Below, piece by piece: positions 11,018 through 59,732 of a stretch of 64,000 nt of DNA. Origin of the DNA: Candidatus Moraniibacteriota bacterium (GTDB lineage Bacteria; Patescibacteriota; Minisyncoccia; Moranbacterales; UBA1568); assembly GCA_013336285.1 (NCBI GenBank), contig JAAXTX010000002.1, positions 13,730 through 77,729 on the forward strand. Reading direction: 5' to 3'. The notes under the pieces were generated by a model. It was not told the DNA's origin. It worked only from the letters and a program-made list of their open reading frames with translations, and searched no databases. A program made the translations under genes and the position numbers. Positions within the stretch are counted from its first letter, which is position 1, and every line of letters begins with the position of its first letter.

Positions 11018-11734
11018 CTATCCGATGATGTGCGCGAGAAAGAGTTTCCGAATCCTGGTCAGTTCCGCGAGGTCCGATCCGCCGACGCGGACCTTGAGGA
11101 TCGACGGAAGCCGATTGCCGAGTATGAGACGGATAAGTTTCACGGCGTTCTCCCCGATCCGGACGGAATGTGAACCGGCATGTTCCTCGGTGACGATGCC
11201 GCCCATCTCGGGACTGAAGAAACAGCGATTCCCGGAACTGAGCGGTCCGCCGGACGCTGCGCACGCGTCGGCTTCGATCCGATATCCGAGTTCGTCGAAC
11301 AGCCGTATGAAGAACGCTTCGGTCAGCAGCGGCGTGAGAGGCATCTTCCCTTCGTGGACAAGACCGTCGAGCAACGAAAGGTATTCCGACAGCATGAAAA
11401 AAAGCCTTTCATCAGGCTGTTCCAATCCTACGAGACGATCGAACACCGAAGCCGTGTCAAGCCCCGTCGAAAGCGTCTCGTACTCACCCCGAAGCGCCAT
11501 GAACGACTCCTCGGCGATCGCGCCGGCCACCTTGCCGATCCCGCGGCCGCGCACGACCGTCACATCCGAAAGCGTGAGTGTCTCGAGCGCTGCGGCAAGT
11601 TTTGCGGCCGGCTTTCGTACGCCGATCGCCTTCGCCTGTACCTTGCCCATTTCTCGGGTAAAGAAAGTATACAGACGATCGGTCTCCCCGATCTCTTTTT
11701 TGCGCAGTACGATAGCGGTCAATCGAAGCTCCAT
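11018..11734 (-). CDS. recO: DNA repair protein RecO
   Basis: The N-terminal OB-fold region MELRLTAIVLRKKEIGETDRLYTFFTREMGKVQAKAIGVRK matches the RecO pattern. The longer listed ORF (to 11836) is probably an upstream artefact. Confidence 0.65.
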   Translation of the reverse strand: MELRLTAIVLRKKEIGETDRLYTFFTREMGKVQAKAIGVRKPAAKLAAALETLTLSDVTVVRGRGIGKVAGAIAEESFMALRGEYETLSTGLDTASVFDRLVGLEQPDERLFFMLSEYLSLLDGLVHEGKMPLTPLLTEAFFIRLFDELGYRIEADACAASGGPLSSGNRCFFSPEMGGIVTEEHAGSHSVRIGENAVKLIRLILGNRLPSILKVRVGGSDLAELTRIRKLFLAHIIG

Positions 11735-11808
11735 TTGGAGAGAAATGAAGAATTGGAAAGTATGAAGAAAAAATGTTGCGGTACCAATCGATACGATCTT
11801 ATGAATCC

Positions 11809-12321
11809 TTAATCTTCCAGAAAACTCAGGATGCACTCAACCGAATCTCCGATTGCCGTATCGGTATCGAGAAATAGCTTCGGATCCGACATGATGCGAT
11901 AATCGAAGTCATTTCTCATGAAACATCTCTCCGCATCGTGATGCGCCGGATGCCGCTCCCGCGACCGGAATCTCCGCTCCCGCTCCGGTTCATCGATCCG
12001 ACAAACGACGACGCGGACGACATGTCCACTCTCGGCGATATGGGCGATCCGATCCGCATTGCCAAGACGGTCAAACGTCGCATCACAAACGATATCATGT
12101 CCACTTTCCAAAGCCTCGTCGATAAACTGGAACAGACGAACGTTCACTTCTCTGCTGAAGCGGTCGCTCTCTTGAAGCGATGTGCCGCTTTTTTGACGAT
12201 ACAATTCAATCTTCACGTCATCCTCGCAGCATCGAACGATTCCCAAGCGTTCGGAGACAATTTCGGAAAGGGTCGTCTTTCCCGAACCAGGCAACCCGCA
12301 GAATATAATGGCCCTACTCAT
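11809..12321 (-). CDS. P-loop NTPase/kinase (AAA_33-like), paralog 1
   Basis: 170 aa with the Walker A motif GLPGSGKTT at residues 9-17. It is about 45% identical to the 12915-13424 product. Confidence 0.7.
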   Translation of the reverse strand: MSRAIIFCGLPGSGKTTLSEIVSERLGIVRCCEDDVKIELYRQKSGTSLQESDRFSREVNVRLFQFIDEALESGHDIVCDATFDRLGNADRIAHIAESGHVVRVVVCRIDEPERERRFRSRERHPAHHDAERCFMRNDFDYRIMSDPKLFLDTDTAIGDSVECILSFLED

Positions 12322-12329
12322 AGAAAATA

Positions 12330-12878
12330 CTACAGCAAGCCGAGATAATCGAGACCGAGATACCCGACATTGACGTCGGTCAACTGTCCTGAACGGAGAT
12401 GTGTGCGAAACTCCGACAATGTCATCAATACCGCCTCCACATTCTCCCCATTGTCTTCCAAGCGCGGCTCGGCAATTTTTTCACAATCCGTTACGACGAA
12501 CGCATGCCTCCGGGACGACGCGTATGCATCCACCAGCAATGTTGCGACATATTGAAGCGTACCTCGATATCCGGTCTCCTCCAATAGCTCACGCGCCACA
12601 GCGACCTCCGGAGTTTCCCCTTCCTTCGCGCTGCCGCCCGGAAGTTCACACACGACCTTGGCCGGACCGGGCCTGTATTGTCTCGCGAGAATGACTTTTC
12701 CGTCCTTCGTCATCGGCAGACAACAGATCGGGTCATGCCCTCCCTGCAGATAGAAATCCGTCTCTCTCCCATCAGGGAGTCGGAACATCACCTTCTCAAT
12801 CACCCGACTGTATTTCCGAAAGACCTCTTCCCGGGAAAGTTCTTTCCATGGTTGAACTTTATCCATATTGATATTCAC
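12330..12878 (-). CDS. NUDIX hydrolase (ADP-ribose pyrophosphatase-like)
   Basis: NUDIX box GGSAKEGETPEVAVARELLEETG. Confidence 0.85.
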   Translation of the reverse strand: MNINMDKVQPWKELSREEVFRKYSRVIEKVMFRLPDGRETDFYLQGGHDPICCLPMTKDGKVILARQYRPGPAKVVCELPGGSAKEGETPEVAVARELLEETGYRGTLQYVATLLVDAYASSRRHAFVVTDCEKIAEPRLEDNGENVEAVLMTLSEFRTHLRSGQLTDVNVGYLGLDYLGLL

Positions 12879-12914
12879 TACCGAATAAAATGATTCGGAA
12901 AGAAATTACTTTCC

Positions 12915-13424
12915 TCAATTGAGAAACTTTATAATTTTCTCAACTGACTCCCCTATCGGCTTTGCCGTATCTAACAAGAGTTTCTTTCCCGGCATCAATC
13001 CATAATCAAATATATCCTCGAAAAAAGTTCTCTCCGTGCCATGATATGCCTCATGCCGAGGACGGCTGACAAACCTCCGCTTTCGTTCTTCTTCGTCCAC
13101 CCGACACACAATCACTCTTACATCCCGCCCCTCAGTCACCCATTTTACGAATTGTTCTACATTGTCCGGATGATTGAACGTCGACTCGATGATAATATCG
13201 GTTCCGTTCTTCATTGCGTCATCCGCCAAAGCGATGAGGAGTCGTATCGAATGAAATCCGATCTTCCGACTATCATCAAGACTCATTCCGTTCAGATACC
13301 CATGCAAACGCTTCTTGACCGCATCCTTATGCAAGCAGAATATGTTCATCTGACACGAAACCTCGGTCGCGAGAGTCGTCTTCCCCGAACCGGGTAAACC
13401 ACAAAATACGATGACCCTGTTCAT
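12915..13424 (-). CDS. P-loop NTPase/kinase (AAA_33-like), paralog 2
   Basis: 169 aa with GLPGSGKTT and a conserved ...VCR(I/V)DE(P/E)ER(E/K)RRF.SR.RH.A.H..ER.F..DFDY..M block shared with paralog 1. It overlaps the ileS stop by 4 nt. Confidence 0.7.
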   Translation of the reverse strand: MNRVIVFCGLPGSGKTTLATEVSCQMNIFCLHKDAVKKRLHGYLNGMSLDDSRKIGFHSIRLLIALADDAMKNGTDIIIESTFNHPDNVEQFVKWVTEGRDVRVIVCRVDEEERKRRFVSRPRHEAYHGTERTFFEDIFDYGLMPGKKLLLDTAKPIGESVEKIIKFLN

Positions 13425-16400
13425 ACATTCCGTTTGAGTGCGAAGGAAAACATCCCCCCCTCTATCTTCGCGATCTCGCGATAGTCCGCATCCGCTATAT
13501 CGCCGCGAACGACTTCGGTCGCAAGTGTCTCGCGCGCGATCTCATCCCCGAATCCGTTCACCTCGACATCTCCGTCGAAGACCCGCTCCTTCCCCACGAT
13601 ACCGAGCGTGATCCTATCACTCACCTCGAATCCGGCTTTCTTGCGCCCTTCCTGGATCGCCCGAATGATTTCCCGTGCCTCGCCTTCGAGTGCGAGCTGT
13701 GGGGTGATTTCGGTATCCAATGCGATATCTTCGACCGTGGAACCGTCGAAACAGACTCCTTTAACATTGAGCTCCTCGAAAATGATCCGCTCCAAGAACA
13801 ATCTATCCTGAGAATCCGAGACGGCATCGAAAAGTTCCTGGTATTTCTCGCTTTTCAGCCGGATCTCGTTCAGAGGTTGCCGTACCTTGATTTTCGCCTC
13901 GGCACGTTTCTGAAGTCCTGAGCTGACAATCTCTCTCACCTGACTCATCATCACATTTAGCTTTTCATCAATTTTTCCTTCATCCGTTTCCGGCCACTCG
14001 GCAAGATGGACCGACCCGGGAACATCCTTAGATTCCGGGTCAAGCCCGGAATGACAATTCATAAGGTTCAGATAGATCTCCTCGGAAATGAACGGGGTGA
14101 ACGGTGCCATGAGCTTCGAGAGCGTGACGAGTACCTCGTAGAGCGTCGCATAGGCGGCGTCCTTGTCTCCGTCGTTCTCGTTCTTCCAGAAGCGCTTCCG
14201 ATTCCGGCGGATATACCAGTTCGACAGTTCATCGATGAACGATTCGATCTTGGCCGTCGGCGAATACAGGTCGTACGACGCGAGTGCCTCATCGACCTCG
14301 CGGACCAGCGCCTGCAGTTCGGACAAAATCCAGCGATCGAGGATATTCTCGGATTTCTTCGCATCCTTCCTTGGTTCCCACCCGTCGATCGACGCGTACG
14401 TCGTGAAGAACGAATACGAGTTCCAGAGCATCCGGAAGATGCGGTTCATCACGTCGCGCATCCCTTTCTCGTCGAACCGTTTCGGCAGTCCCGGCTGGTT
14501 GATGGAATACAGATACCACCGCAGCGCGTCCGCCCCGTATTTCTCGAACATCTCGAACGGATCCACGACGTTCCCCTTGGACTTGGACATCTTCTTTCCC
14601 TTCGCATCGAGGACGTGTCCCAGACAGACGACGTTCTGATACGCGTTTCCTTCGCGCACGACTCCCGCCTTGTGAAGCAAGGTCGCGATCGCGTGCAGCG
14701 TGTAGAACCACCCGCGGGTCTGATCGATCGCCTCACTGATATAATCAGCCGGGAAGTACTTCCCTTCGCCGATCCCGTTTTTCTCCTCGTCGGTCGCGCT
14801 TGCGGGAAATCCGAACTGCGCCAAGGGCATCGCTCCGGAATCGAACCACACGTCGAGCACCTCGGGTGTCCGTTTCATCGCCCCCTTCCCGCATTCGCAC
14901 GGCCACCATACTTCATCGATATACGGCTTGTGTAGGTCTTCCGGTTTCTTTCCGGACAGTTCCTTAAGTTTCGCTTTCGAATCGACAACCATCCTATGCC
15001 CACACCCGGTGCATTCCCATACCGGAATCGGCGTCCCCCAATATCGGTCGCGCGAGATCGCCCAATCCTTCGCCCCCTTGAGCCACTCCCCGAAACGGCC
15101 TTCCTTGATGTGCTCCGGCACCCAAGCTATCGACTCGGCATTCTGCGTAAGCTCCTCACGGACCGTGCTCATCGCGATAAACCACGACGGCTTCGCATAA
15201 TAAATCAAAGGCGTATCACACCGCCAGCAATGCGGATACTCATGCTCGTATACTTCTTCACGTAAGAGCAATCCGCGCTCACGGAGATCCGCGACGACGA
15301 GTTCGTCCACGGCAGACTTGTTCTTGTCATTCTTTTTCTTGACCGGCATACCGGCCCCGGGAAACCCTTTCAGCATCTTTCCCTCGAGGTCCACCGTGTG
15401 AAGTGTGGGAAGTCCGTTCGCCCGTGCAAGCTCCGCGTCATCCTCACCGAATGCCGGCGCGATATGCACGATGCCGGACCCGTCATCGGTCGTCACGAAG
15501 CCCGCCGCATATACTTTCCAGGCGTTCTCCAGGTTTTCATCCGCACCTTCAGCCGTTCCTTGGAACAATGGCTCATACGCGACTCCGACCAACTTCCCGC
15601 CAAGCACTGTCTCGTTCACTGTGAAAGCATCGGGTGATACGGCATCTTTCCGACCCGAGGCCATAATGAGATTTTCCGATACCGACTCGGCACCCTCGGC
15701 TGTGCCGGGCGCCGCGACCGTCCCCACCACGTATTCGATATCCCCGTTCACGGCAAGCGCGACATTCCCCGGAAGCGTCCACGGTGTCGTCGTCCACGCG
15801 ACGAGATACGTTCGGTCATCGGCAGTGAATGCGCCGATCTTCTGACCGGGCTTCACCCGGAATTTCACGAATGCGGAAGTATCCTTCACGGTCTGATATC
15901 CCTGAGCTACCTCGTGCGAGGAGAGCGCTGTCCCACACCGGTAGCAATACGGCACGACCTTATGCCCCCGATAGAGGAGATCGTTCCCGTTCGTATCCTT
16001 CTGTTCCGCGATCTTCGAGAACTGCCACCAGACCGATTCGATATAGCTATCCTCATAGGTGACATACGGATGTTCCATATCCACCCAGTACCCCATACGC
16101 TTCGTGAGCTTCTCCCACAGATCCCGATACTCCCAGACGGATTCTTTGCACTTACTATTGAACTCGATGACACTCGCGCGCGTATCGCCCGGCACGATGT
16201 TCTCGATATCCTGCTTATTCCTGAGTCCGAGCGCCTTTTCCACCTGGAGCTCGACCGGCAATCCGTGCGTGTCCCATCCGGCCTTGCGGCGAACACGATA
16301 ACCCTTCATCGTCTTGTAACGCGGCACGGCATCCTTGAACGATCGGGCAAGCACATGGTGCAAGCCCGGCTTCCCGTTGGCCGTCGGCGGTCCCTCATAA

Positions 16401-16528
16401 AAGACGAAGTCTCCTTTCGGCGCATCCTTCTCGACGGACTTCCTAAAGATATCGTTCGCGTCCCAATACGCGAGAATTTCTTCCTCCATCTTCGGGAAAT
16501 CGGATTTGGGGTCGATTTTTCTGATCAT
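13421..16528 (-). CDS. ileS: Isoleucyl-tRNA synthetase
   Basis: 1035 aa with the HIGH-type motif PPTANGKPGLHHV, KMSKS as KMSKSKGN, and editing and anticodon-binding regions. Confidence 0.95.
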   Translation of the reverse strand: MIRKIDPKSDFPKMEEEILAYWDANDIFRKSVEKDAPKGDFVFYEGPPTANGKPGLHHVLARSFKDAVPRYKTMKGYRVRRKAGWDTHGLPVELQVEKALGLRNKQDIENIVPGDTRASVIEFNSKCKESVWEYRDLWEKLTKRMGYWVDMEHPYVTYEDSYIESVWWQFSKIAEQKDTNGNDLLYRGHKVVPYCYRCGTALSSHEVAQGYQTVKDTSAFVKFRVKPGQKIGAFTADDRTYLVAWTTTPWTLPGNVALAVNGDIEYVVGTVAAPGTAEGAESVSENLIMASGRKDAVSPDAFTVNETVLGGKLVGVAYEPLFQGTAEGADENLENAWKVYAAGFVTTDDGSGIVHIAPAFGEDDAELARANGLPTLHTVDLEGKMLKGFPGAGMPVKKKNDKNKSAVDELVVADLRERGLLLREEVYEHEYPHCWRCDTPLIYYAKPSWFIAMSTVREELTQNAESIAWVPEHIKEGRFGEWLKGAKDWAISRDRYWGTPIPVWECTGCGHRMVVDSKAKLKELSGKKPEDLHKPYIDEVWWPCECGKGAMKRTPEVLDVWFDSGAMPLAQFGFPASATDEEKNGIGEGKYFPADYISEAIDQTRGWFYTLHAIATLLHKAGVVREGNAYQNVVCLGHVLDAKGKKMSKSKGNVVDPFEMFEKYGADALRWYLYSINQPGLPKRFDEKGMRDVMNRIFRMLWNSYSFFTTYASIDGWEPRKDAKKSENILDRWILSELQALVREVDEALASYDLYSPTAKIESFIDELSNWYIRRNRKRFWKNENDGDKDAAYATLYEVLVTLSKLMAPFTPFISEEIYLNLMNCHSGLDPESKDVPGSVHLAEWPETDEGKIDEKLNVMMSQVREIVSSGLQKRAEAKIKVRQPLNEIRLKSEKYQELFDAVSDSQDRLFLERIIFEELNVKGVCFDGSTVEDIALDTEITPQLALEGEAREIIRAIQEGRKKAGFEVSDRITLGIVGKERVFDGDVEVNGFGDEIARETLATEVVRGDIADADYREIAKIEGGMFSFALKRNV
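14041..14066. repeat. REP-like palindrome copy inside the ileS coding sequence (in-frame, encodes CHSGLDPE)
   Basis: GATTCCGGGTCAAGCCCGGAATGACA is the reverse complement of the 2283-2305 element. Confidence 0.55.
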
Positions 16529-16694
16529 ATGTTTGATATCAATAGAATTATATGACGATTGCTATGACACGAAAACCTCTCATTTCCCAAAGCTACGGAT
16601 GGCGCCACCCTTGATTATCACTCTCTTGCAAAATACCATCCCAACCACACATACAGCTTATTTCAAGAATAAGCATGCCCCTTCAAGCCTAACC

Positions 16695-16722
16695 TTGACT
16701 TTTCTTTATTTTCATGTATAAT
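16695..16722 (+). promoter_or_regulatory. Near-consensus sigma70-type promoter TTGACT-N16-TATAAT
   Basis: TTGACTtttctttattttcatgTATAAT, about 55 nt upstream of the small ORF at 16778. Confidence 0.5.
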
Positions 16723-16777
16723 AGAAGTAAGTTGAAAAACTGGCTTCTTAGCTTCTTAAAAATCATAAAAATCTACC

Positions 16778-16927
16778 ATGAAAAAATTTATCGTTTCCGC
16801 ACCCCTTGTGGGAATGCTCGCCTTCCTCGGCCTTGTAGTGGCGGCGGAAGGCAGCGAGGGTTTCTTGCGAGCGTTAAGCTCGCTTGGGACCGCTTTCTGC
16901 ACTGGTCCAATAATTTTTTTACACTAG
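16778..16927 (+). CDS. Small secreted or membrane peptide (49 aa) with N-terminal signal-like helix
   Basis: MKKFIVSAPLVGMLAFLGLVVAAEGSEGFLRALSSLGTAFCTGPIIFLH. It has its own promoter and a downstream hairpin plus T7, and lies in a low-GC insert. It is below the ORF-track size cutoff. Confidence 0.4.
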   Translation: MKKFIVSAPLVGMLAFLGLVVAAEGSEGFLRALSSLGTAFCTGPIIFLH

Positions 16928-17037
16928 GTTTGAAAACTTACGGCTGCTGGTCTATGATCGGCAGTTTTTTTATTCCAGTATCTTAAAAGGCAAGTCCTCT
17001 TTTGGAAATCCGTCTTCGGATCGATCTTTCTGATCAT
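16924..17037 (-). pseudogene. Orphan duplicate of the ileS 5' terminus (MIRKIDPKTDFQK... followed by out-of-context sequence)
   Basis: About 40 bp at 16998-17040 match the ileS start region 16488-16530 at about 82% identity, with shared TTTCTGATCATAT. The first 13 codons match IleRS MIRKIDPKSDFPK. Confidence 0.5.
16941..16971 (+). terminator. Intrinsic terminator (hairpin CGGCTGCTGG...CGGCAG followed by T7)
   Basis: Imperfect stem followed by TTTTTTT, immediately after the small ORF. Confidence 0.4.
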
Positions 17038-17048
17038 ATTCGATTCGA

Positions 17049-17468
17049 TTATTGATCTAATGAGGCTAGAAACGCCGCCTCATCCGGATACCGCTCCTCG
17101 AAAATGAGATAGAGCGTTTCCGGTTTTTCAGGTTCGCCGATCAGGATCAGATGTTTACCGAGCCCGTACGCGATCCCCGCCTCGATATGAGCGGCGTTCC
17201 CGCACGGCAGCAACATGATGACTTTCTCCGCATTCTTCAATCCGTCCAAGTCGCAACGGAACATATCGATGAAATGCGGGTTTGTATAAAAATTCTCGGT
17301 CGCTTCATGTATCGCCATCTGTTCCTCGGGACTTGCGTCCGGATTCTTCGGATCAGCCGGTATCTCGCAGAAATCATAGCAGGTCTTTCCCCGTTTACGC
17401 AGTTCGGCAACCAGCGCCTGCACCCGTTCCTTGTTTCGGAATTTCGAAATGATGGTGAAATCGGTCAT
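17049..17468 (-). CDS. Nucleoside 2-deoxyribosyltransferase-like (PF05014-like) protein
   Basis: The LPCGNAAHIEAGIAYGLGKHLILIG motif and a size of about 139 aa fit the NDT-like fold. The start is assigned to MTDFTIIS..., and the longer listed ORF would run over a terminator hairpin. Confidence 0.5.
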   Translation of the reverse strand: MTDFTIISKFRNKERVQALVAELRKRGKTCYDFCEIPADPKNPDASPEEQMAIHEATENFYTNPHFIDMFRCDLDGLKNAEKVIMLLPCGNAAHIEAGIAYGLGKHLILIGEPEKPETLYLIFEERYPDEAAFLASLDQ

Positions 17469-17717
17469 AGCGGTTGATACAAAAAATCCCTCCCCGAAAG
17501 ACAGGGAAGGACGGAAAGACCGTGGTACCACCTTCGTTCGCGACGACCGAACCGTCCGATCATCGCCTTCGTGTACGGCTGTCACGGGCCTACCCGTCGG
17601 ATTCTACCGCGCCAAGCCGAAGCGCTTCGCGAAGGCTGGCTGCCTTCTCACGTATGACTGACGTTTCTTTCCGAGGCGTACCCCGATACGGATCGGGGCT
17701 CCGGAGTGATGGCTCCG
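17469..17717 (-). promoter_or_regulatory. GC-rich structured leader with intrinsic terminator immediately upstream of the NDT-like gene (candidate riboswitch/attenuator)
   Basis: On the minus strand it has long-range complementary segments (GGACGG...CCGTCC). It ends with a CCTTCCCTG...GGGGAGGGA hairpin plus T6 about 10 nt before the ATG. No coding potential. Confidence 0.3.
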
Positions 17718-18209
17718 TTATCGCCGTTCCCTATTGTGAAGCCCGTCCCGGTTCCGGGAAAATATCTCCCATCCCTTGCGGATATCATCCCGTACTCCGG
17801 GAATGAAGTCAAATCCGGAAAGGTCTTCGATCGACTGCCAGCGACATTCGGAGTGTTCGTGTTCATCGCATACGGGCTCCGTCCGCCCTTCGCCATACCC
17901 CTCACAGAAACAGACGAACTTTATGCCCGGGATCTTTTTCTGCGACAGGTCCGGTACGGCGATCTCATACGTCGAGAACGGTATCGCTCCGCCGATACGG
18001 ATGTCGAATTCCTCGCGCATCTGCCGGACGACCGCTTCCTCGAAATTCTCACCGGCGTGTACCTGACCGCCACCGCATTCCCACTGCCCGGGATAGAGTG
18101 CCCGGGTCTCTTGCCGTTTCGCGATCAGCGCGACGATACCGGCCTCCGTCTCCCGGAGACAGATGCCTGCCACATGTACCTCGATGAGTTCACGATGATC
18201 TTCCCTCAT
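17718..18209 (-). CDS. NUDIX hydrolase (MutT-like)
   Basis: NUDIX box GGGQVHAGENFEEAVVRQMREEFDI. Confidence 0.8.
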   Translation of the reverse strand: MREDHRELIEVHVAGICLRETEAGIVALIAKRQETRALYPGQWECGGGQVHAGENFEEAVVRQMREEFDIRIGGAIPFSTYEIAVPDLSQKKIPGIKFVCFCEGYGEGRTEPVCDEHEHSECRWQSIEDLSGFDFIPGVRDDIRKGWEIFSRNRDGLHNRERR

Positions 18210-21849: not shown

Positions 21850-22246
21850 GGGGTTGTTTAGTTTCGACAGCGAGTTCATTCAGAACCTGCAAGCCGATGA
21901 TGGGGAGTCATCGTAAAAAATCCCCACACACGATATCTGCCAACATCGTATCAAAGGTGAAGATGGCGTTCGCTAACGCGTTCTCCCCGTCTTTCGCTTC
22001 AGCTCTCGCCTAAGGGCGTGAGCCATCGGACCCCCGATGTCTGATAGGGGTCATCCGGTGTCATATCATCAGACGGACCGACAGGAGTCTTTCCTCCATT
22101 CACTTCGTCGGCCCGGCATGAAAAGAGGCCCTGGGAAGGTTTCCGTCCGCCTTTCCGCTTTCCGGGGAACCAAAGGCTGACTATGCTTGTAGACGGTTTT
22201 GGAAAAACCCGTTTGGACATGGGTGCGATTCCCATCAACTCCACAC
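21850..22246 (+). ncRNA. ssrA: tmRNA (ssrA)
   Basis: The 5' end GGGGTTGTTTAGTTTCGACAGCG matches the tmRNA 5' consensus GGGGCUGAUUCUGGAUUCGACGGG. The 3' end has the T-arm GGGTGCGATTCCCAT and the acceptor strand CAACTCC+A pairing with GGGGUUG, including the G3:U pair. An internal in-frame tag reading frame ...AFANAFSPSFASALA* ends about 21960-22012. It sits immediately downstream of smpB. Confidence 0.7.
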
Positions 22247-38032: not shown

Positions 38033-39097
38033 TTATTCTTCCTCGGAAATGATTCCACTTCCCAGGCACTCATCCCCGCGATAGAACGCGGCGATCTGCC
38101 CGGGAGCGACTCCGGTATCGCCTTCCGCAAGCATCACGCGCCCACGACCCCTATCCTGAATCACAAGATTGCACTCGGCCTCTTTCACCCCATGTCGAAG
38201 TTTCACTGTAAGCGTATCGTCGGACGAAGGCGCTTCCGCGATCCACGAAAGCCCCTCGACCGAAAATTCCGTCCGCGCCGTCTCCGCACTCCTATATGCG
38301 TTCGATATATAGACGATATTCTTGGTGGTATCCTTGCCCGTCACGTACCAGGGTCCCCCGGAAAGCCCTATTCCCTTGCGCTGGCCGATCGTATAGAACC
38401 AGAAGCCCTGGTGCTTCCCGAGCCTTGCTCCGGTCTTCTGGTCGACGATATCCCCTTCGCGGGTCCCAAGCTTCTCCTCGAGGAACTTGTCGAACGGAAC
38501 TTTCCCGAGGAAGCAGATCCCCTGACTATCCTTACGCGTGGCATTCGGAAGCGCGTACGTCACTGCGAGCTTCCGCACTTCCTCCTTGCGGTATCCGCCG
38601 ATCGGGAACATCGCCTTTTCTGCCTGCTCCGGCGTGAGCCTCGAGAGGAAATAGGTCTGGTCCTTCACCGGGTCGGATGAACGCAGCAGACGAGCCTTGC
38701 CGTCTCGAATTTCGGTGTGCGCATAGTGCCCCGTCGCCGCCCGATCGAATTCCGATCCGTACGCCTCGACGAACGCCCCGAACTTGATAAGCGTATTGCA
38801 GAACACGTCCGGATTCGGCGTCCGTCCCGCCGTCGCCTCGGCGATCACGTACGACACGATACGCTCGTGGTATTCCTTCTGGAACGGAACGATCTCGAGT
38901 GGTACCCCAGCCCCCTCGCATACCGAGCGGACATATTTCAGATCTTCCTCCCACGGGCATTCACCCAGGAACGACAACTCGTCCTCAAGCCATATCTTGA
39001 GGTAGAACGCGGACACCTCGTGCCCCGCGTCCTTCAAAAGACGCAGAGCGACCGAACTGTCCACCCCGCCGGAAATAAGCATCGCTATCTTCATGAT
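38033..39097 (-). CDS. mnmA: tRNA-specific 2-thiouridylase MnmA
   Basis: The PP-loop motif SGGVDSS and C-terminal Cys residues. The start is assigned to MKIAMLISGGVDSS. Confidence 0.85.
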   Translation of the reverse strand: MMKIAMLISGGVDSSVALRLLKDAGHEVSAFYLKIWLEDELSFLGECPWEEDLKYVRSVCEGAGVPLEIVPFQKEYHERIVSYVIAEATAGRTPNPDVFCNTLIKFGAFVEAYGSEFDRAATGHYAHTEIRDGKARLLRSSDPVKDQTYFLSRLTPEQAEKAMFPIGGYRKEEVRKLAVTYALPNATRKDSQGICFLGKVPFDKFLEEKLGTREGDIVDQKTGARLGKHQGFWFYTIGQRKGIGLSGGPWYVTGKDTTKNIVYISNAYRSAETARTEFSVEGLSWIAEAPSSDDTLTVKLRHGVKEAECNLVIQDRGRGRVMLAEGDTGVAPGQIAAFYRGDECLGSGIISEEE

Positions 39098-39460
39098 TCC
39101 TCTATAATCGGAAAGAAACGATAGCATGCGCAGAGAAAATTGTCATATACGACACTGTTTCAAAGAAATCGTCTTATCCGGTGTTTCGCCGTCGGTGAAG
39201 TTTTCCAAAAGCAGTCAACTCCCGTCTTCATTTTATAAATCATATGCGATCGTGAACACGATAGAGTGCGTCCCGAGAAATATAATAGGCGTTTAGTCAT
39301 TGTAAGAATTTTCGAAAAAAGTTCGCAGTTCGTTCACGAAATTATTCGCCATGGAATTGTGATGGTGGCGACCACTTCGTAGAAATGATTCTCCGTAAGC
39401 CTTTTATGTCATTGTCTTTTGTTTCTCCCAAGTGCGCGTTGTTTCTCATAGCTAATACAA

Positions 39461-42400
39461 TTAATCCCAGCGAAGATCGTAGAGATCAGACTCTACATCG
39501 TGTCCCTTCGCTTCGTGTTCGTAAGACTCCGCTATCGAGCGTAAAAGCGCAGCCGTGCGTGGCCATCTCACCTTCACTGCGTCGCTCAGCTTTTTATATT
39601 TCTCGACCAGTACTCGCTCCTGCTTGCCTCCGTCATTCAAGCCACGTGATGTCACGCCACGGCTGTTGTAAATCTCGTTCTGGATATGGTCGTCGATAGT
39701 TTGATTGTTGAGCTGTTCGATGACGTTGCGAACAGTGGTATGCGGCCATGTGCCGTCCGGGTCTGCTGGCGCATGCGCGAGGATAAAGCCAATTTGCAGA
39801 TCACAGCCGATGACGTGCTTCGTCTCCTCGCATCGCTTACGGGCCGCGGTGATCCAATCCATGAGGGCTTTTTCGTCCACACCCCCATCATCCTTGAGGC
39901 CCGGCAAGAGATACCAAGAATCCAACACCTCGCTTGTAACTCGCCACCTGCGCTCGCGTATCTCTTCGTCCACACCTTCCTCGCTCGGGTTTTCTGCGCG
40001 GTCGTCGCGCTTGTAAATAAAGCTGATCAGTTGGGCAAAGAAAGTAGGGTCGGTCTGCAACGCTCGGTGAAGTGCCATTGGCGCGGCAGTATACCGCTTG
40101 AGTTCGTCGAACAGAGCAGCAAAAGGCCATTCGAGCTTTGCCATTTCGTCTATTGAAAGTTCGTTTTTTTCGTACAACTGTCGGAATACATGCCCAAGAT
40201 GGAATTCGTCCATCACGTCGCCAAGCGTCTTTTTGTCCTGCGCGTTCAGAATCTCTTGGAGCAGACGCTGTAGCAGTCTGTTTGGAACATCAACGTCCGG
40301 GCTACCAGCAACATGAAGCGCAGCGAACGGCCGCTTGGCATCAAGGAGCTTCTCGACTGCGATCGGCACGTCGGTGTTTTTATCCGCGCGAGAATAACCG
40401 CTTGCTTGTTTCCAATACGCAACCTCTTCTTCCTTGCCTCGTGCCGCGACCGCACTCCACGTCTCAGCACCTTCTGGCAAACCGAAATAGAGAAGCGCAC
40501 ACGCTTCCGGCGAGTAATTGCCTTGTGTTTTCAAACGCTCAATGGACTTGTCTATCCACTCAGCACCTACGACCTCGACGCGACCCATTGCGTAGCCGCG
40601 CGTGAGCAACGGCATATCTTTGACGCGCGTGATGAGCAAATCTAAAACAGTGTTGTCCTCCTGCTCGTCGCGCACAGCCATCGCAAGAGCATGGCCGAGT
40701 ACGCCCTGATACTGAATCGTGCTCGAAAACTCCAAAACCTTTTCAAACGGAGTATTGTCCAAGACTTCCCGAGCTGCAGCCTTTTGAGCCTCTTTTACCG
40801 AAGTGTCCTTTGCGTCATATTCTTTCGACTCTCCCTGGGGCAAGCGCGGCCATGGCGTACTCAAAAGCCAACCGACGCGCTCAATAACATCCGTGGGAGC
40901 GAATTTCTGCAGTATTTGATTCAAATCTGGCACATGGACGCGCCTATCCGCTTCGCCGTAGCTGTTAATCCAATTGAGAGCCTCGCGTGTTTTCTGAAGC
41001 AGTAAGTCCCTCTCTTCTTTTGAAAAAGCATCAGGCTCCATTGCGAGTATTGTAGTTAGCAACCGCTCCCGCGTATCTGCAGGGATACGCGTAAACTCAT
41101 CCAGTGAAGCAACGGCGTTCTCTCGGGCACAGGCAAGGTCCTGCAGCATAGGTAACAACCCCCTTAAATACTCGTTGTATTCAGCGTTCGTCTCTTGCTC
41201 AAGACCACGGCGATAACCGCCCGTCTCGCGCCAGCGAAAGCGATGCGACTCGCTGATACTGCCACCGCCATAGTATCTTTCGGCGAATTTCCAGACCAAC
41301 TTAGGATACATAGTGATCAGCTTTTTCAATACTTCCAAACGCTCCTTCGGTTGTGCGTGCGTCTGCGGAAGCCCGGGCAAAAACACTTCGCCTAAACTAT
41401 TCGCTGGGCGATTGCTCCGGCCTCCTCCGAGATCAATATTCGCCAATTCAATAAGCACATATACTGCACGCGCGAAATATTCCGTGCTCCACGCGATGCC
41501 TTCGAGAGACCACAGCAGCCCAGAGTGGCGGCATTCTCCCACCACGCCTCGCACGTCATCTTTCATAAGGTCTTGGAAAATGCTCGGCTGCTTTGCGATC
41601 CATCCCTCAAGAGATTCCATGAACGCGTCCGGTGAAGCCTCAGAAAGCAAGGGAGATGCCTCCTTGAGCGATGACCATGCCTCCCATGTGCTCGCGTTCG
41701 TAAAGACAGTGCGGACGATGCGATCGGCAAACGCTTGCGCCGACGCGACGCTTGGAGACTGGCTGCCATGTACCGCGATCAATACGAGCGATTCGACAAG
41801 GCCGGTCTGCAGCCACTCGGAATATGGATTACCTTTGCCATAGATGGAAGCTGCCCACCGCTTCTCCGGTTCAAGTTCGTACTTTGGGTCGGTTTTAGTG
41901 AGCACTGATAGAAGCGCGGTCTCGAATAGTTTCAGCTGACCTTGCGTGAGATGCGGAGCGAGGAGATACCAAGCATCGAGCGGCGACTTGATCATCCATA
42001 CGCTGCCGACCTTCCGAACAGGCGCGTCATCAATCGATAAAAAAGGAGTAAGCTCTTTGATGAATGCGTCGTAGCCCATGCCGGTAAGAGCCTCGACAAT
42101 CTGACGGTCGCCATCCTTATGCTCATCCCATGCGTTTGCAATCAGCACTGGCAGGAGGATCTTCGCCGATTCAGCTTTAGCCCAGGCAGGCGCGCTGACG
42201 GCGTTCGATTGAAATAAATGGCGACGCAATACCGGAATGCTACGTCCCGAGTCCCGAGCGATTCTCAAAGCATCAGCTTCGGAGAGACCACCATCGTGTA
42301 AGAGCTTCTCGACCACACTGCGCTGCGGTCGCGCGAGCCGAAGCACACTGCGAATGCCGACAACGGTCGCGTCCATGCTTATGAAAACGTGATGGCCTTT

Positions 42401-43258
42401 GGCGATGGCAGCATGAGCGCCGTCCAAGCATTCCCCGGGGCCTGCAATGACGAGCGGATAGTTTGGAAACGCCTGAACGAGCTGACGCATCTCCGCCTTG
42501 TTCTCCACGACCACGCACCGCGCGAATGCCTGTGCCTTTTCCGTCTCAGGAAGCGTCGCGATTGCAGCGTACAGGAATGCATACGCTTCGTCGGGGTGAT
42601 CGCCCTGCACTTCAAGAATAGCCGGACGCTCGGCAATCCATTTCTTCACGGCCTCCGCGTCTCTCGTGCGCCCTCCGATGACAAGCTGCGGTGTCATCAC
42701 CGGCTTCGTTCCCACAGACCATTCCTCCCACACCGCCTCCAAATCACGTATACCATTCGAGACGACCTTGCCGATCTGACGCGCAAGCCATAGACCGACC
42801 GCCGGAGTGATGGCAATCCATTGCTCAAGCGTATCGGCAGCGATCACTTTGACGTCCTTCCATGCGCCGAGCGCCTTCTTCGCTGCTTGCCATGCGTTGC
42901 GCTTGGGGAATGAGCGCGGAGTCACAAAGACGAACGTCGTATCGGACGCGGTCATCCCAAGCGGATCGGCGGCACGCTTGGCATAGTCGGCTTCGGCTTT
43001 CGTCTGCGCCGACTTCTCGGTCCCTACCTCCCAGCCTGATGCGCCGGTCGGAAGGAATGGAGAGGTTACCGGCGTCTTGAGCCGTCCGTCCCATCCGCCA
43101 GTCGCTACGCTATTACCACTAGGAAAATCGAACTCCTCAACGGCATTGGCCGTGTGAGCTAGAATGAGGCGTCCCACAAGCTCCGGCAGGGTGTCCTGGC
43201 AGTGCCGCTGTTGCGTGTTGGCCCAGTTTGCGATGTCGGTTGCGGTAATCCACTTCAT
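39461..43258 (-). CDS. Large orphan hypothetical protein (1265 aa), no recognisable catalytic motifs
   Basis: A single long uninterrupted ORF with its own AT-rich 5' and 3' flanks and somewhat lower GC than its neighbours. It is Trp-rich and mostly alpha-helical by composition. The N-terminal ~110 aa have a D...GGWDG...GWEVGTEK pattern. Confidence 0.65.
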   Translation of the reverse strand: MKWITATDIANWANTQQRHCQDTLPELVGRLILAHTANAVEEFDFPSGNSVATGGWDGRLKTPVTSPFLPTGASGWEVGTEKSAQTKAEADYAKRAADPLGMTASDTTFVFVTPRSFPKRNAWQAAKKALGAWKDVKVIAADTLEQWIAITPAVGLWLARQIGKVVSNGIRDLEAVWEEWSVGTKPVMTPQLVIGGRTRDAEAVKKWIAERPAILEVQGDHPDEAYAFLYAAIATLPETEKAQAFARCVVVENKAEMRQLVQAFPNYPLVIAGPGECLDGAHAAIAKGHHVFISMDATVVGIRSVLRLARPQRSVVEKLLHDGGLSEADALRIARDSGRSIPVLRRHLFQSNAVSAPAWAKAESAKILLPVLIANAWDEHKDGDRQIVEALTGMGYDAFIKELTPFLSIDDAPVRKVGSVWMIKSPLDAWYLLAPHLTQGQLKLFETALLSVLTKTDPKYELEPEKRWAASIYGKGNPYSEWLQTGLVESLVLIAVHGSQSPSVASAQAFADRIVRTVFTNASTWEAWSSLKEASPLLSEASPDAFMESLEGWIAKQPSIFQDLMKDDVRGVVGECRHSGLLWSLEGIAWSTEYFARAVYVLIELANIDLGGGRSNRPANSLGEVFLPGLPQTHAQPKERLEVLKKLITMYPKLVWKFAERYYGGGSISESHRFRWRETGGYRRGLEQETNAEYNEYLRGLLPMLQDLACARENAVASLDEFTRIPADTRERLLTTILAMEPDAFSKEERDLLLQKTREALNWINSYGEADRRVHVPDLNQILQKFAPTDVIERVGWLLSTPWPRLPQGESKEYDAKDTSVKEAQKAAAREVLDNTPFEKVLEFSSTIQYQGVLGHALAMAVRDEQEDNTVLDLLITRVKDMPLLTRGYAMGRVEVVGAEWIDKSIERLKTQGNYSPEACALLYFGLPEGAETWSAVAARGKEEEVAYWKQASGYSRADKNTDVPIAVEKLLDAKRPFAALHVAGSPDVDVPNRLLQRLLQEILNAQDKKTLGDVMDEFHLGHVFRQLYEKNELSIDEMAKLEWPFAALFDELKRYTAAPMALHRALQTDPTFFAQLISFIYKRDDRAENPSEEGVDEEIRERRWRVTSEVLDSWYLLPGLKDDGGVDEKALMDWITAARKRCEETKHVIGCDLQIGFILAHAPADPDGTWPHTTVRNVIEQLNNQTIDDHIQNEIYNSRGVTSRGLNDGGKQERVLVEKYKKLSDAVKVRWPRTAALLRSIAESYEHEAKGHDVESDLYDLRWD

Positions 43259-43542
43259 AAAAACGGTGTCGTGTGAACGCGCTGTATAAGGCTCACATGG
43301 GCCAGAAAAGGGCTCAGGTTCCTTTTTTCAGAAATGAAAAAGTAACGTCTTTATCGTATCTAATACGACGGGAATATACAATAATTCCCTTTTCAAAGCC
43401 AATTTTCATGTTCCCTCAATCTTCCATCCCTAGCGCATCAGACCAACAATCAGCTTCAATAAATACAAGACCGAGGCTCGAATAAGCCTCTGTCAGTTCC
43501 GTGGATTGAAACCACTCAAACGATATCCAATATGTCATCGGC

Positions 43543-44531
43543 CTAAGGTTTCAGGCACGCTCCGTCCGCCGCGAGGTACTCCCTGACGATCCGCCTCACC
43601 TCGGCGACATCTCGTGCTTCCATGAGGGAGATACGGAGATCCTTCGCGTGGTCGAAACCGCTCACATAGGCCTTGGAGAACTTTCGCATGACCTCGAATT
43701 TCCTCCCCTCTCCGTAGAAACGCTCGAAGAGTTCCGCATGTTCGACGAGCGCGTGAAGCTTGTCCCCGATGGCGACATTCTTCTTTCGCGCATTGAACAC
43801 CCATGGATTTCCAAGACTCGCCCGGCCGATCATGATCCCATCGGCTCCGGTTTCCTTCGCTTTCGCTCGACCATCGGCAAGATCGGTCACATCACCGTTG
43901 CCGATGATAAGCACTCCGCTCCCCTTCGCTATCTCGACCGCGCGCGTCACGCGATCCCATTTCGCTGGCACTTTCGACATTTCCTTCCTCGTACGCGCAT
44001 GTATCGTGATCGCCGCGGGGTTCGTTTCAAGCAACACCGGAAGCCAGGTATCGAGTTCGTCCTTGTTCCATCCGATGCGCGTCTTCACCGATACGGGAAT
44101 CGGGTGATGATGTGATGAGACACCCTCTTTTGCGGCTATGACAAGTTCCGCCGAAAGCGATGGATCCTTGATGAGCGCCGCCCCCGCCCCCTGGTCATTG
44201 ATCGCCTTGTCCGGACATCCCATGTTGATATCCACCCCGTCGAACCCGAGGTCCGCGATAAGATACGCCGCCTGCCGTATCTTCTCCGGCGAAGCGGAAA
44301 AGATCTGTGCCACGATCGGTCGCTCGATCTCGCCGTCGTATTCAAGCTTCGGCAAAAGTGCCTGCCTCCCCACCGGATGCAGCAGTCCGTCCGCGGACAC
44401 GAACTCGGTCCACATCACATCGGGTTTGCCATGTCGCGCGAGCATCGTGCGGAACGGAAAATCCGTCACGTCGTCCATCGGCGCCAGCGCGAAAAAAGGT
44501 TTTTTCAGTTGTTCCCAGAAGTTTGATTCCA
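43543..44531 (-). CDS. tRNA-dihydrouridine synthase (Dus family)
   Basis: FALAPMDDVTDFPFR, the FMN-binding TIM-barrel motifs and GVDINMGCP. The start is assigned to MESNFWEQ..., and the longer listed N-terminus is unlikely. Confidence 0.8.
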
Positions 44532-44599
44532 TGAATGAATGGTACCGGGCAGATAGAAAAGAGGCAAGGAAGCTGCGAATCGGTCGGCGAATCCGTCGG

Positions 44600-44650
44600 T
44601 TGACAATATGCGATGTATCCATTATAAATAATGGTCGACAAGGTGTCGAC
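44600..44650 (+). promoter_or_regulatory. Consensus promoter TTGACA-N17-TATAAA followed by a GTCGAC-N5-GTCGAC operator-like repeat
   Basis: TTGACAatatgcgatgtatccatTATAAAtaatgGTCGACaaggtGTCGAC. Confidence 0.45.
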
Positions 44651-44695
44651 GCCTGGCGCAAGGGACTTGCGTAACGCTCCTTACAAGAATCCGAT

Positions 44696-44989
44696 ATGTT
44701 ATCACGCACCTTTTTCCCGCGAGACAAGAATACCGACGAGTTTTCCCTCTCGGATCTCGATGTCCTTGTTCCGGGATTGGGAACAGAGATTCTCAAGCAG
44801 ATCGACTCGGTCCAAGACCGCCATTCAATGAACGCGGCCAAGGAAACCATCTCCACCCTGCTCGAGCGACACGGTACACGCATGGAAGACATCTTCATCG
44901 ACCAAGGTGATTGTTCCGGACACAACCTGGAGATCGCCTTCGAGAGTACGGCTTATAACCACAAGCTTCAAGATAGGCTCCGTGGTTGA
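44696..44989 (+). CDS. Hypothetical small protein (97 aa)
   Basis: An ORF downstream of the consensus promoter with no recognisable motif. Confidence 0.3.
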   Translation: MLSRTFFPRDKNTDEFSLSDLDVLVPGLGTEILKQIDSVQDRHSMNAAKETISTLLERHGTRMEDIFIDQGDCSGHNLEIAFESTAYNHKLQDRLRG

Positions 44990-54448: not shown

Positions 54449-55180
54449 ATGCTCCACAAACGACTCCAAAATGCCGGATTGAACGAAACCGAAGCGAAGA
54501 TCTACCTCGCCGTGCTTGAACTCGGCCAGACATCCGTCAGTCGTATCGCACTGAAAGCAGGCATCAAGCGAACGACGGTCTATCTTTCCCTTGAAAACCT
54601 GATGAAAAAAGGTCTTATCAGCGCCATTAAAAAGGGCAGCAAAGCATATTACTACGCCGAAGACCCGAGAAATCTGGAGCGCATGATGGAAGTTCGAAAA
54701 AATGAAGTATCGGACATCATCCCCCGGTTGCTTGCCTTCACGAATCTCATCGACAACAAGCCGGAAATACGCTATTTCGAGGGAGAAGAAGGAATCAAGG
54801 AAGTCCTCATGAAATCACTCGAGCAACCGGGCAAGGAAATACTGATGATGTTTTCCGAGTCGTACTTTTCGGACTTCGGCGACGAGTTTTTCGAAAAAAC
54901 GTATCGACCGGAAAGGATCAGACGAAAAATCCTTTCACGGACGCTGATGCCGGATAACGAACAGATGCGTGCCTTTTCGGGAAAAAGCGTTCAACACTTG
55001 CGTCAGGCGAAATTCCTTCCGCCAGACCTGTTCAAGATCGATATCGAGGTATTGATGTATGAAAGAAATCAGATAGCCATAATTTCCTTCAAGGAGGGGT
55101 TCGCTTTCATTATTAACAGCCCCGCGATTCACTCCAGTTTCAAAAGCATCTTCGAGACCCTCTGGGCCGTGGCGAAATAG
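54449..55180 (+). CDS. TrmB family transcriptional regulator (archaeal-type sugar regulator-like)
   Basis: An N-terminal HTH (ETEAKIYLAVLELGQTSVSRIALKAGIKRTTVYLSLENLMKKGLI) plus a C-terminal effector domain. It lies on a low-GC islet. Confidence 0.7.
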   Translation: MLHKRLQNAGLNETEAKIYLAVLELGQTSVSRIALKAGIKRTTVYLSLENLMKKGLISAIKKGSKAYYYAEDPRNLERMMEVRKNEVSDIIPRLLAFTNLIDNKPEIRYFEGEEGIKEVLMKSLEQPGKEILMMFSESYFSDFGDEFFEKTYRPERIRRKILSRTLMPDNEQMRAFSGKSVQHLRQAKFLPPDLFKIDIEVLMYERNQIAIISFKEGFAFIINSPAIHSSFKSIFETLWAVAK

Positions 55181-58625: not shown

Positions 58626-59732
58626 CTACTTCGATATGGCCATACCGCCTTCTTCAACTTCCGAAGAAATTACCTCATACGTTTCCGGATTGTAGTAGAT
58701 CCGATCATATATCTCAAACGGACGGCCGATAAATCCTCCGTTCTTTTCTGTCGCGATATTCAGATCCCACTTATCATAATACGATATGTAATGCCCTTTC
58801 TTATCTTCTCCGAGAGTGATCGTGAAACGCCCCATTACCCTAGAGAAATCGTCGACGAACAACTCATTTCCACCACCCTCTTTCAGTTCTGATACCAAGT
58901 CGCTTACCGTTTGTTTTTCAAACAGTTTTGGAAAAAAATCAACGATTTTGTAATAATATTTATCCACGTCAGATCGAGCCGGTTTGTGATCCGAGATCCC
59001 GAAAGTTCCATGTTTCTGAGAAAGACCAAGGTAGAGCCTCCACGCATCATAGCGTTCCGGTCCCTGCTTTTCATAGAATGTCGACGCGCCCATTACCAAA
59101 TTATCGAGAAACAACATAGAATGAGCTTCGCTAAAATAGGTTACCGGGCGAATACTTCTCTCAACCAGTTCACTGAGACCGAACTTGTATACCGACCGCT
59201 GTTCCTCTGTTATCCCTTCTTCAAACATTTCCGATCTCGCACGATCGCGCTCAGCGAACTTTCCATCCGCTTTCTGCATAACGTTCACACCAGTGAAATA
59301 TGCCCCGTAGAGAGGAAAAAGACTCACGAATCCGACCATGACCCGATTCATGATTCGATCAACCTTCTCTCGGTGTTTCTTGATTTCTTTTCCATAGAGC
59401 CTCGCTCGCGCTTCAATTAACTCCCGCTCTTCCTGAACTTCAGGATGCCTCTCGAGTTCGGAAATCTGAAATTCGACAACATCGGAAAGTCGGCTGGCGG
59501 GATGCCTCTCAAGCCATGAGACAAGATTAGCTCTGAGTGTCGCGACCTGGTTCGAATCATCCGAAGATGGCACACAATCATCGAGCTCTCGCCAGTCCCC
59601 GATTACCTTCGCCGCTTCCAGCATCCTTTCACTGATTTTCTTATCAAAATTCTCTTGCCGTTCCGGAAAATCCTCCTGCGGAACACTGGGTTTTTCCGGT
59701 ACAGCAAGAGACGGCATAAACGATTCCTTCAT
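58626..59732 (-). CDS. Hypothetical protein, cargo of the low-GC insert at the xseB 3' end
   Basis: 368 aa, lower GC than neighbours, no motif recognised. Confidence 0.5.
   Translation of the reverse strand: MKESFMPSLAVPEKPSVPQEDFPERQENFDKKISERMLEAAKVIGDWRELDDCVPSSDDSNQVATLRANLVSWLERHPASRLSDVVEFQISELERHPEVQEERELIEARARLYGKEIKKHREKVDRIMNRVMVGFVSLFPLYGAYFTGVNVMQKADGKFAERDRARSEMFEEGITEEQRSVYKFGLSELVERSIRPVTYFSEAHSMLFLDNLVMGASTFYEKQGPERYDAWRLYLGLSQKHGTFGISDHKPARSDVDKYYYKIVDFFPKLFEKQTVSDLVSELKEGGGNELFVDDFSRVMGRFTITLGEDKKGHYISYYDKWDLNIATEKNGGFIGRPFEIYDRIYYNPETYEVISSEVEEGGMAISK

Follow-up and report, generated by a model that had tools for sequence, protein, structure and literature searches.

The locus and the encoded protein

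In the window (a 64,000-nucleotide stretch of contig JAAXTX010000002.1 from a Candidatus Moraniibacteriota bacterium), a single large open reading frame (ORF) on the minus strand is flanked by mnmA (38033–39127) and a gene for a Dus-family dihydrouridine synthase (dus), both assigned by Pfam. The original prediction, made from the letters alone, had placed a 1265-residue ORF at 39461–43258 and regarded its product as an orphan of possible defense function; the coordinates and length were borne out, and the start is backed by a near-invariant MKWI N-terminus among the homologs. The gene and its predicted domains are as follows.

39461–43258 (including the stop codon), minus strand: 1265-residue ORF, candidate Avs8-like sensor–nuclease without a P-loop (ORF call and homology)
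42764–43258, minus strand: PD-(D/E)xK restriction-endonuclease-fold domain, residues 1–165 (conserved D57, E77, and K87)
41849–42706, minus strand: STAND/NB-ARC-like NBD–HD–WHD module without nucleotide-binding motifs, residues ~185–470 (R197, E224, H289, and R346)
42578–42619, minus strand: residues 214–227, ILEVQGDHPDEAYA, comprising β1 and then the site of the Avs8A Walker A (GLSGVGKT), here replaced or deleted (alignment and secondary structure)
39464–41821, minus strand: HEAT/ARM-like α-solenoid, presumed ligand sensor, residues ~480–1265 (model)

AlphaFold2 models were generated with a 79-sequence alignment of the family for residues 1–560 (predicted local distance difference test score (pLDDT), 92.2; predicted template modeling score (pTM), 0.88) and residues 500–1265 (pLDDT, 90.7; pTM, 0.75). 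The N-terminal domain shows the α/β core of restriction endonucleases, its nearest nuclease folds being restriction enzymes such as FokI, MspJI, AspBHI, and N.BspD6I. The speculation that a PD-(D/E)xK nuclease core lies at the N-terminus is thus upheld, with the fold spanning ~130–165 residues and D57, E77, and K87 conserved; K87 is located 10 residues downstream of E77, in the following helix. Together with R95, R197, E224, H289, and R346, these residues are invariant or nearly so down to 26% identity. The next module has the three-domain NBD–HD–WHD fold of the STAND NTPase superfamily and lacks the P-loop site for binding of nucleoside triphosphate (NTP): a Walker A motif (GxxxxGK[ST]) was found in none of 119 diverse full-length members, and its absence from the ORF had been correctly noted before. 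Conserved in this module are also the stretches VIGGR197xxDAE and G338RSIP342, which were compared by eye with the STAND motifs hhGRxxE (its Arg preceding the P-loop) and GxP (of the helical domain), respectively.

The C-terminal two thirds are all-α in the model, in line with the predominantly helical product that had been anticipated, and the observation that the protein is rich in Trp also holds (37 residues, 2.9%). This part resembles generic HEAT/ARM repeats only (condensin Ycg1, 9.4; symplekin, 8.2; TOG domains, importins, and PP2A-A). From its start to about residue 890, the solenoid is homologous to Avs8A, and the last ~360 residues are specific to the family. Searches of PDB sequences with the single protein and with the family profile gave no real match.

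Relationship to Avs8A

PD-lambda-4A (Vassallo et al. 2022, PMC9519451) has been renamed Avs8A and is described as the fusion of an Mrr nuclease with a STAND NTPase, its ligands being major capsid proteins of the HK97 fold (PMC13581612; bioRxiv 10.1101/2025.07.02.662641); the PD-lambda-4/Avs8 system is defined as a two-gene operon, A plus B (bioRxiv 10.1101/2025.07.02.662641). The PADLOC hidden Markov model (HMM) for PD-Lambda-4_A (PDLC03991, 1283 positions) gave weak matches in three family members (16–22 bits), all in one collinear position, and nothing in other relatives scored. A genuine Avs8A of 1265 residues (14373–18167, minus strand) was found in the metagenome-assembled genome (MAG) of an Acidobacteriaceae bacterium (L004), only 2.6 kb from a member of the present family (8001–11789, plus strand), with a 490-residue ORF without family match (11889–13358) between them. 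This Avs8A scored 1051.7 bits over the full length of the profile (3–1283 of 1283), and contains the motifs DGGIDV...GFQVKQ, Walker A GLSGVGKT, and Walker B ILVVDN. Because the family-level HMM test failed for the window protein and its relatives, we regard them as a sister family rather than as members of Avs8A.

The homology emerged from profile comparisons. The family profile detected a single Avs8A sequence with E = 5.5e-4 over 278 columns, and the hhalign comparison of the family with a 55-sequence Avs8A alignment gave a probability of 96.5% (E = 8e-10) over 793 columns in one collinear block. In this block, residues ~1–890 of the family are aligned with residues 5–922 of Avs8A, extending from the nuclease through the NOD to midway along the sensor. 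D57 is paired with the Asp of Avs8A, E77 with the invariant Q82, and G79 with K84. ILEVQG is paired with VVRLVG, after which the P-loop of Avs8A lies opposite a gap; VVVEN is paired with the Walker B strand ILVIDN, SGRSIP with SGGNARIA, and PQTHA.PEERL with SGTHATIEQRL. The segment from β1 to the Walker-B-like strand is shorter by ~26 residues in the family than in Avs8A, where G246/S248/G249/G251/K252/T253 and D306/N307 are invariant. Judged from these alignments, the family shares its ancestry and domain order with Avs8A and has lost the nucleotide-binding motifs. Since D57, E77, K87, R197, E224, H289, and R346 are kept while Walker A is found in 0 of 119 members, the family is under purifying selection. 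No conserved B partner was found across the family loci examined, the 190-residue remnant described below being confined to the closest clade.

Size and distribution of the family

The protein is far from being an orphan. It matches PHROG 18693 over its full length (E = 2.6e-173), and a word-indexed search yielded no fewer than 439 clusters at 90% identity, nearly all with lengths of 1255–1279 residues. An exhaustive HMMER search with residues 1–450 as the query retrieved, at E ≤ 1e-3, representatives of 3,749 clusters (50% identity); for 1,723 of them, E was ≤ 1e-30. An identical protein is registered from a Candidatus Moranbacteria MAG (HGA31_00655). The relatives at 57–89% identity include entries labeled Parcubacteria, Margulisbacteria, and Bryobacteraceae, and the range spans Moranbacteria, Parcubacteria, Saccharibacteria, Elusimicrobia, Gammaproteobacteria, Margulisbacteria, and Acidobacteria; hosts added from genome contigs are Saccharibacteria, Elusimicrobia, Gammaproteobacteria, Acidobacteriaceae, Nitrospirae, and Rhizobiales. 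Plasmids contribute at least 20 full-length copies with 25–33% identity, their hosts including Rhizobium, Shewanella, Cupriavidus, and Ralstonia; of the 25 plasmids with a match, 12 are conjugative. A DNA-level search of E. coli genomes with a gammaproteobacterial member gave no family match.

An extra N-terminal Xre helix-turn-helix (HTH) domain of ~96 residues (PF01381) was identified in 39 of 118 full-length representatives, and it is solely because of this extension that plasmid copies are named "HTH transcriptional regulator" or "HigA family antitoxin" in RefSeq. In the members tested, Pfam recognizes no domain in the core of ~1260 residues, and Pfam and NCBIfam scans of the window ORF yielded nothing meaningful. 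A KdsB-like identity suggested by NCBIfam for residues 181–258 was rejected, as its ~15.5 bits are far below the cut-offs of 193–255 and reflect a Rossmann-like α/β region. The designation as a phage gene, despite the PHROG match, was also rejected: two scans of IMG/VR gave no relatives, and the sole match in the phage collection is a divergent member (L029, MT837561.1, 1723–5373, plus strand; HMM positions 4–862 and 1155–1257) on an "UNVERIFIED Bacteriophage sp." scaffold of 6.6 kb from human feces.

The dus–mnmA junction in related genomes

Comparison by blastn with the Moranbacteria contigs L026, L027, and L028, which encode the three closest MnmA orthologs, showed that the DNA homology ends at window position 43586 and restarts at 39145. 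The window and these contigs share the order Rrf2 – dus – [X] – mnmA – HhH-GPD glycosylase – AI-2E transporter – lgt, and the content of slot X differs in each of the three, as follows.

39146–43585, no strand: variable segment (islet) between the conserved dus and mnmA (blastn against L026, L027, and L028, and synteny)
Window: 1265-residue gene in the slot; PADLOC PD-Lambda-4_A, 15.7 bits
L026 (MnmA identity, 91%), slot 7957–9000: 215-residue gene of no known family; no PADLOC match
L027 (84%), slot 7632–9000: Fic gene and 44-residue ORF; PDC-S04, 130 bits, and SoFic, 97 bits
L028 (79%), slot 5690–9000: NUDIX gene, 164-residue ORF, and AAA_14/DUF4143 ATPase gene; ATPase, PDC-S01, 306 bits

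The islet delimited in the original prediction is a near match to the segment absent from the relatives. The lineage-wide conservation of the gene in this exact position, which had been named as evidence that would tell against a mobile origin, was not observed in L026, L027, or L028. On these comparisons, the dus–mnmA junction is a variable defense hotspot in the related Moranbacteria contigs. In L028, a 45-bp copy of the mnmA 5′ end (7277–7321; 97.8% identity to window positions 39095–39051) is located upstream of the PDC-S01 gene, and repeated pieces of the dus 5′ region (2503–2614 and 3610–3672) bracket an AbiEii/DUF6922 pair; these duplications look like integration footprints.

The composition of the gene was compared with that of the rest of the window. 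In tetranucleotide usage, the ORF is the strongest outlier of the window (L1 distance, 0.345 versus 0.173 ± 0.018 for 106 non-overlapping window chunks of equal size; z = 9.3). Its GC content (0.551) and GC at third codon positions (0.603) are close to those of 36 other long ORFs (0.539 ± 0.034 and 0.627 ± 0.070, respectively), and its synonymous-codon likelihood is merely ~1.3 standard deviations (SD) under the mean of the window's other long ORFs. Thus, of the proposal that the gene is compositionally distinct and low in GC, the first part holds for the oligonucleotide signature, whereas the second does not hold for GC or third-position GC. Because of this tetranucleotide deviation and of the other cargo in the syntenic slot of the closest mnmA relatives, the 1265-residue gene is judged to be horizontally acquired.

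Genomic contexts of other family members

Elsewhere, family members are found next to defense and mobile-element genes. Serine recombinases adjoin them at L009, L020, and L006; a tyrosine integrase and a type I restriction–modification (R-M) system at L014, L015, and L016; an AlwI-type R-M system and a DDE transposase at L017; PDC-S01 at L005; and an Abi-family gene, superinfection-exclusion protein B, and a recombinase on the plasmid of Shewanella baltica OS117 (L025). A single protein, P0004, recurs without any change in three or more contexts, beside an integrase and HsdR, beside an AlwI R-M system and a transposase, and beside an SNase gene. In the 4.28-Mb genome of L012, the homolog resides in an insertion of ~6.7 kb splitting a Mg-chelatase/comM-like gene (5073–5315 and 12047–13567); two HTH genes are located upstream of this homolog. 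Taken together with the variable dus–mnmA slot, these neighbors support the idea that the gene is of defense or mobile-element origin, and the two marks used here operationally for a defense gene, variable presence in a hotspot and known defense or mobile-element neighbors, are both present.

The leader common to L015, L017, and L019 begins right after the sequence ...GGTTCGAATCCTACCCGCGGAGCC (L019, ~2440–2490, upstream of the gene at 2537). This sequence resembles a tRNA 3′ end and may be an att site; as a tRNA, the L019 sequence was discarded, as it was not called by ARAGORN.

Rearranged and broken copies also occur. In the L025 protein, which matches the family HMM from position 354 onward only, another module (GSGGPRFE...DDLIVFVEN...GQVKN) constitutes the first 290 residues (4125–4994) in place of the nuclease and NBD; such swapping of the N-terminal effector is typical of Avs-like proteins. 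The copy in Rhizobium sp. P32RR-XVIII (L007:8001–11752) is broken and frameshifted, with 49 in-frame stops and a longest ORF of 963 residues. A truncated copy of 922 residues lies beside a group II intron reverse transcriptase on a Buttiauxella plasmid (L024:4875–7643; H23), and a 110-residue remnant of the family gene on a Salmonella plasmid (L023:6013–6345; H26).

Flanking sequences and other features of the window

The flanks of ~330 and ~280 bp described as AT-rich were confirmed as 39128–39460 (333 bp; GC, 0.405) and 43259–43542 (284 bp; GC, 0.423). The former is not simply non-coding, as had been stated, and contains the following feature.

39146–39432, minus strand: pseudogene remnant of a 190-residue gene, residues 7–105, frameshifted near 39358, interrupted by in-frame stops, and cut off where the islet ends

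The intact gene at L020 (7861–8430) shows 59–68% identity to the window sequence (E = 3.9e-21; tblastn and three-frame translation). It starts 12 nucleotides after the family gene in L020 and L001 and is intact nowhere else; in L015–L019 it is shortened to 37 codons, and it was not found by tblastn beside L002–L006, L009, L012, L014, or the plasmid family members. The DNA held in common with the closest loci consists of the ORF, a leader of at most ~40–50 nucleotides, and a 3′ tail of 122–222 nucleotides; this tail is no mere spacer, as the remnant shows. The 190-residue protein has no Pfam match, and its sole PADLOC match is DzbB with 16 bits. Its assignment as Avs8B or as a HEPN protein was rejected, since it matches neither PD-Lambda-4_B nor Pfam, although it contains EWRNVIAHR, which we take by eye to be a HEPN-like Rx4H motif.

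Of the promoter-like and palindromic sequences said to lie in the flanks, the promoter-like ones are present as consensus matches but are not commoner than in shuffled sequence, and the same applies to the count of terminator-like sites around the ORF. Two sites are given here.

43371–43402, minus strand: sole promoter-like site upstream of the ORF (–35 TTGGCT, 43402–43397; –10 TATATT, 43378–43373; consensus match only)
43473–43490, minus strand: terminator-like hairpin downstream of dus (consensus match only)

The palindrome GGGAAT-N8-ATTCCC (43371–43390) overlaps the –10 element and could be an operator, but the islet is without an HTH gene. No flanking direct or inverted repeats and no tRNA genes were found around the islet.

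The dus gene proper extends over ~43543–44523, its orthologs having 325–327 residues and the DNA homology stopping near 44569; the 460-residue Dus-containing ORF (43543–44925, minus strand) given by the ORF finder is over-extended. The islet had been described as interrupting a run of tRNA-modification genes, which is an overstatement, as mnmA and dus alone qualify and the others are the HhH-GPD glycosylase and Suf genes. A tmRNA gene with the tag peptide ANIVSKVKMAFANAFSPSFASALA is located at 21850–22244 (plus strand), and no tRNA genes were called across the 64-kb window. GC contents clearly below that of the rest of the window were found in the ORFs at 2860–3567 (minus strand; 0.412), 58626–59732 (minus strand; 0.463), and 54449–55180 (plus strand; 0.475), which could be further acquired genes.

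Interpretation and alternatives

The folds of the modules, the homology to Avs8A, the loss of the Walker motifs under strong conservation, the mobility, and the hotspot location are established by the data above. The reading we favor, with a probability of about 0.6, is that the ORF was acquired horizontally as a single gene, resides in a defense hotspot, and belongs to a very large family, a P-loop-less sister of Avs8A with a nuclease–switch–sensor layout. By analogy with the Avs proteins, the ligand of the solenoid would be a protein conserved among invading phages or mobile elements, perhaps a capsid protein of the HK97 fold as in Avs8. Binding of the ligand would free the NOD-like switch module, leading to oligomerization without nucleotide hydrolysis, and the gathered N-terminal nuclease domains would then cut DNA and abort the infection.

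Several observations weigh against this reading. The direct resemblance to Avs8A is faint: the window ORF matches PD-Lambda-4_A with 15.7 bits over residues 582–649 only (E = 5.4e-4), BLASTP between the L004 family member and the neighboring L004 Avs8A gave no significant match, and the hhalign probability is short of 99%. The last ~360 residues of the family gave no hhalign alignment to Avs8A, so that the ligand is not transferable from Avs8, and the mean column identity of the solenoid (61–64%) is unusually high for an arms-race sensor. At the canonical Lys position of the (D/E)xK motif (residue 79), the family has Gly, Ser, or Thr, and catalysis would require that this role has moved to K87 in the following helix. 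Oligomerization of STAND proteins normally requires NTP binding, for which the present switch has no P-loop. The Xre HTH on one third of the family would also suit a DNA-binding or regulatory role, the remnant of the adjacent gene leaves open that a partner could have been lost at the window locus, and a literature search found no experimental data on the family.

A DNA-directed or regulatory role has been considered in the form of a mobile-element module that does not sense phage proteins. It could be, for example, a restriction-like nuclease (type IV/Mrr-like) attached to a large regulatory scaffold, or a factor for addiction or exclusion in the competition among plasmids or integrative and conjugative elements, targeted or autoregulated through the Xre HTH fused to many relatives. 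The 39 HTH-bearing representatives, the regulator and antitoxin names in RefSeq, the many conjugative-plasmid copies, the restriction enzymes as nearest nuclease folds, and the highly conserved solenoid are all in its favor. However, two thirds of the family, including the window ORF, have no HTH, the HEAT-like solenoid contains no DNA-binding fold, and the homology and domain order fit Avs8A, a demonstrated protein sensor; adjacent or fused Xre regulators are also common among defense genes. We regard this explanation as unlikely. The 190-residue gene raises a different question, namely whether the large protein once belonged to a two-gene system comparable to PD-lambda-4 A plus B, of which it alone survives, and is inactive in the window genome through decay of its downstream partner. 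The position of the small gene 12 nucleotides downstream in L020 and L001, its remnant in the window, its reduction to 37 codons in L015–L019, and the two-gene definition of PD-lambda-4/Avs8 (bioRxiv 10.1101/2025.07.02.662641) would agree with this scenario, which nevertheless appears improbable, as the gene accompanies no other family member examined by tblastn, the large ORF is intact and conserved without it, and its product has no PD-Lambda-4_B match and only that of 16 bits to DzbB in PADLOC.

It might also be argued that the protein lost its function together with its P-loop and that the gene is an inactivated, decaying relic of an Avs8-type NTPase, because Walker A and Walker B are missing and broken copies exist (the frameshifted L007, the truncated Buttiauxella copy beside a group II intron, and the Salmonella remnant). 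Thousands of clusters of uniform length, the invariance of dozens of residues (among them the nuclease triad and residues at the former nucleotide site), and the interphylum spread at high identity make this very improbable; strong purifying selection across the family is incompatible with decay. A housekeeping protein functionally tied to its tRNA-modification neighbors is hardly credible: the position between mnmA and dus, and nothing else, suggests it, while the closest relatives have unrelated cargo at the same position (a refutation by empty-site comparison), the homologs at the other loci examined are never in an mnmA–dus context, and the oligonucleotide signature of the ORF is foreign.

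Beyond the favored reading of the ORF as an acquired, P-loop-less sister of Avs8A, we tentatively consider a more far-reaching view, for which the odds are clearly lower: that the family (at least 3,700 clusters, from bacteria of the candidate phyla radiation (CPR) to rhizobial plasmids) represents distinct STAND-derived immune receptors without nucleotide binding, in which the conserved R197, E224, H289, and R346 take the place of the bound nucleotide as conformational latch and the highly conserved, family-specific C-terminal lobe recognizes a ligand different from that of Avs8. If true, this would be a nucleotide-independent switch resembling those of NOD-like receptors (NLRs), outside the present Avs classifications, whose seeds are NTP-binding domains. 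Should the family work without a P-loop, it would provide a natural experiment on NLR/STAND switching and oligomerization without nucleotide, and NTPase-seeded searches would undercount the antiviral STAND relatives. A likely function and a testable mechanism are now proposed for a very large unannotated family, which has no family-level assignment in Pfam, NCBIfam, or PADLOC and is misnamed as HTH regulator or HigA antitoxin in RefSeq. The dus–mnmA defense hotspot concerns Moranbacteria, whose genomes are tiny and whose defense content is poorly known.

Comparison with known systems

Avs3 and Avs4 are reportedly nuclease–STAND–TPR pattern-recognition receptors (Gao et al. in 2022). They differ from the present family in having functional P-loops (PDB 8dgf for Avs4), the family profile being unrelated to any PDB chain. 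The Mrr/FokI-type nuclease domains (AF1548, 1y88; FokI, 2fok; MspJI, 4f0p; AspBHI, 4oc8; Can2, 7bdv) share only 6–16% identity with the N-terminal domain, in which the Lys of (D/E)xK is replaced and an invariant Lys is found 10 residues past E77.

The closest counterpart is Avs8A. Both proteins have a total length of ~1260–1270 residues, the same order of an N-terminal Mrr-type PD-(D/E)xK nuclease, a STAND NBD–HD–WHD module, and a helical-repeat sensor, and a location on mobile or defense islands. In contrast to the invariant GxSGxGKT and DN of Avs8A, no Walker A or B is found in the family members tested; the nuclease motif is D..ExG plus K87 in the family and D..QxK in Avs8A; the HMM score is 16–22 bits for the family versus 1052 for a true member; and the family has no conserved B partner, one third of it bearing the Xre HTH.

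KpAvs8 naturally lacks the conserved nucleotide-binding residues (PMC13581612, Extended Data Fig. 11 legend; bioRxiv 10.64898/2026.01.04.697583, Supplementary Fig. 16 legend), and appears in a published panel of anti-phage plaque assays and in target-binding models (PMC13581612; bioRxiv 10.64898/2026.01.04.697583). KpAvs8 may be a degenerate canonical Avs8A or itself a member of the present family; no Klebsiella or E. coli family member was found on plasmids or in the E. coli genomes searched. Walker-degenerate Avs8-type proteins have thus already been reported, and the gene represents an Avs8-like, P-loop-less variant rather than the previously undescribed system that had been envisaged. Compared by its published description only, KpAvs8 provides an earlier example of an Avs8-like receptor that has no ATPase motifs.

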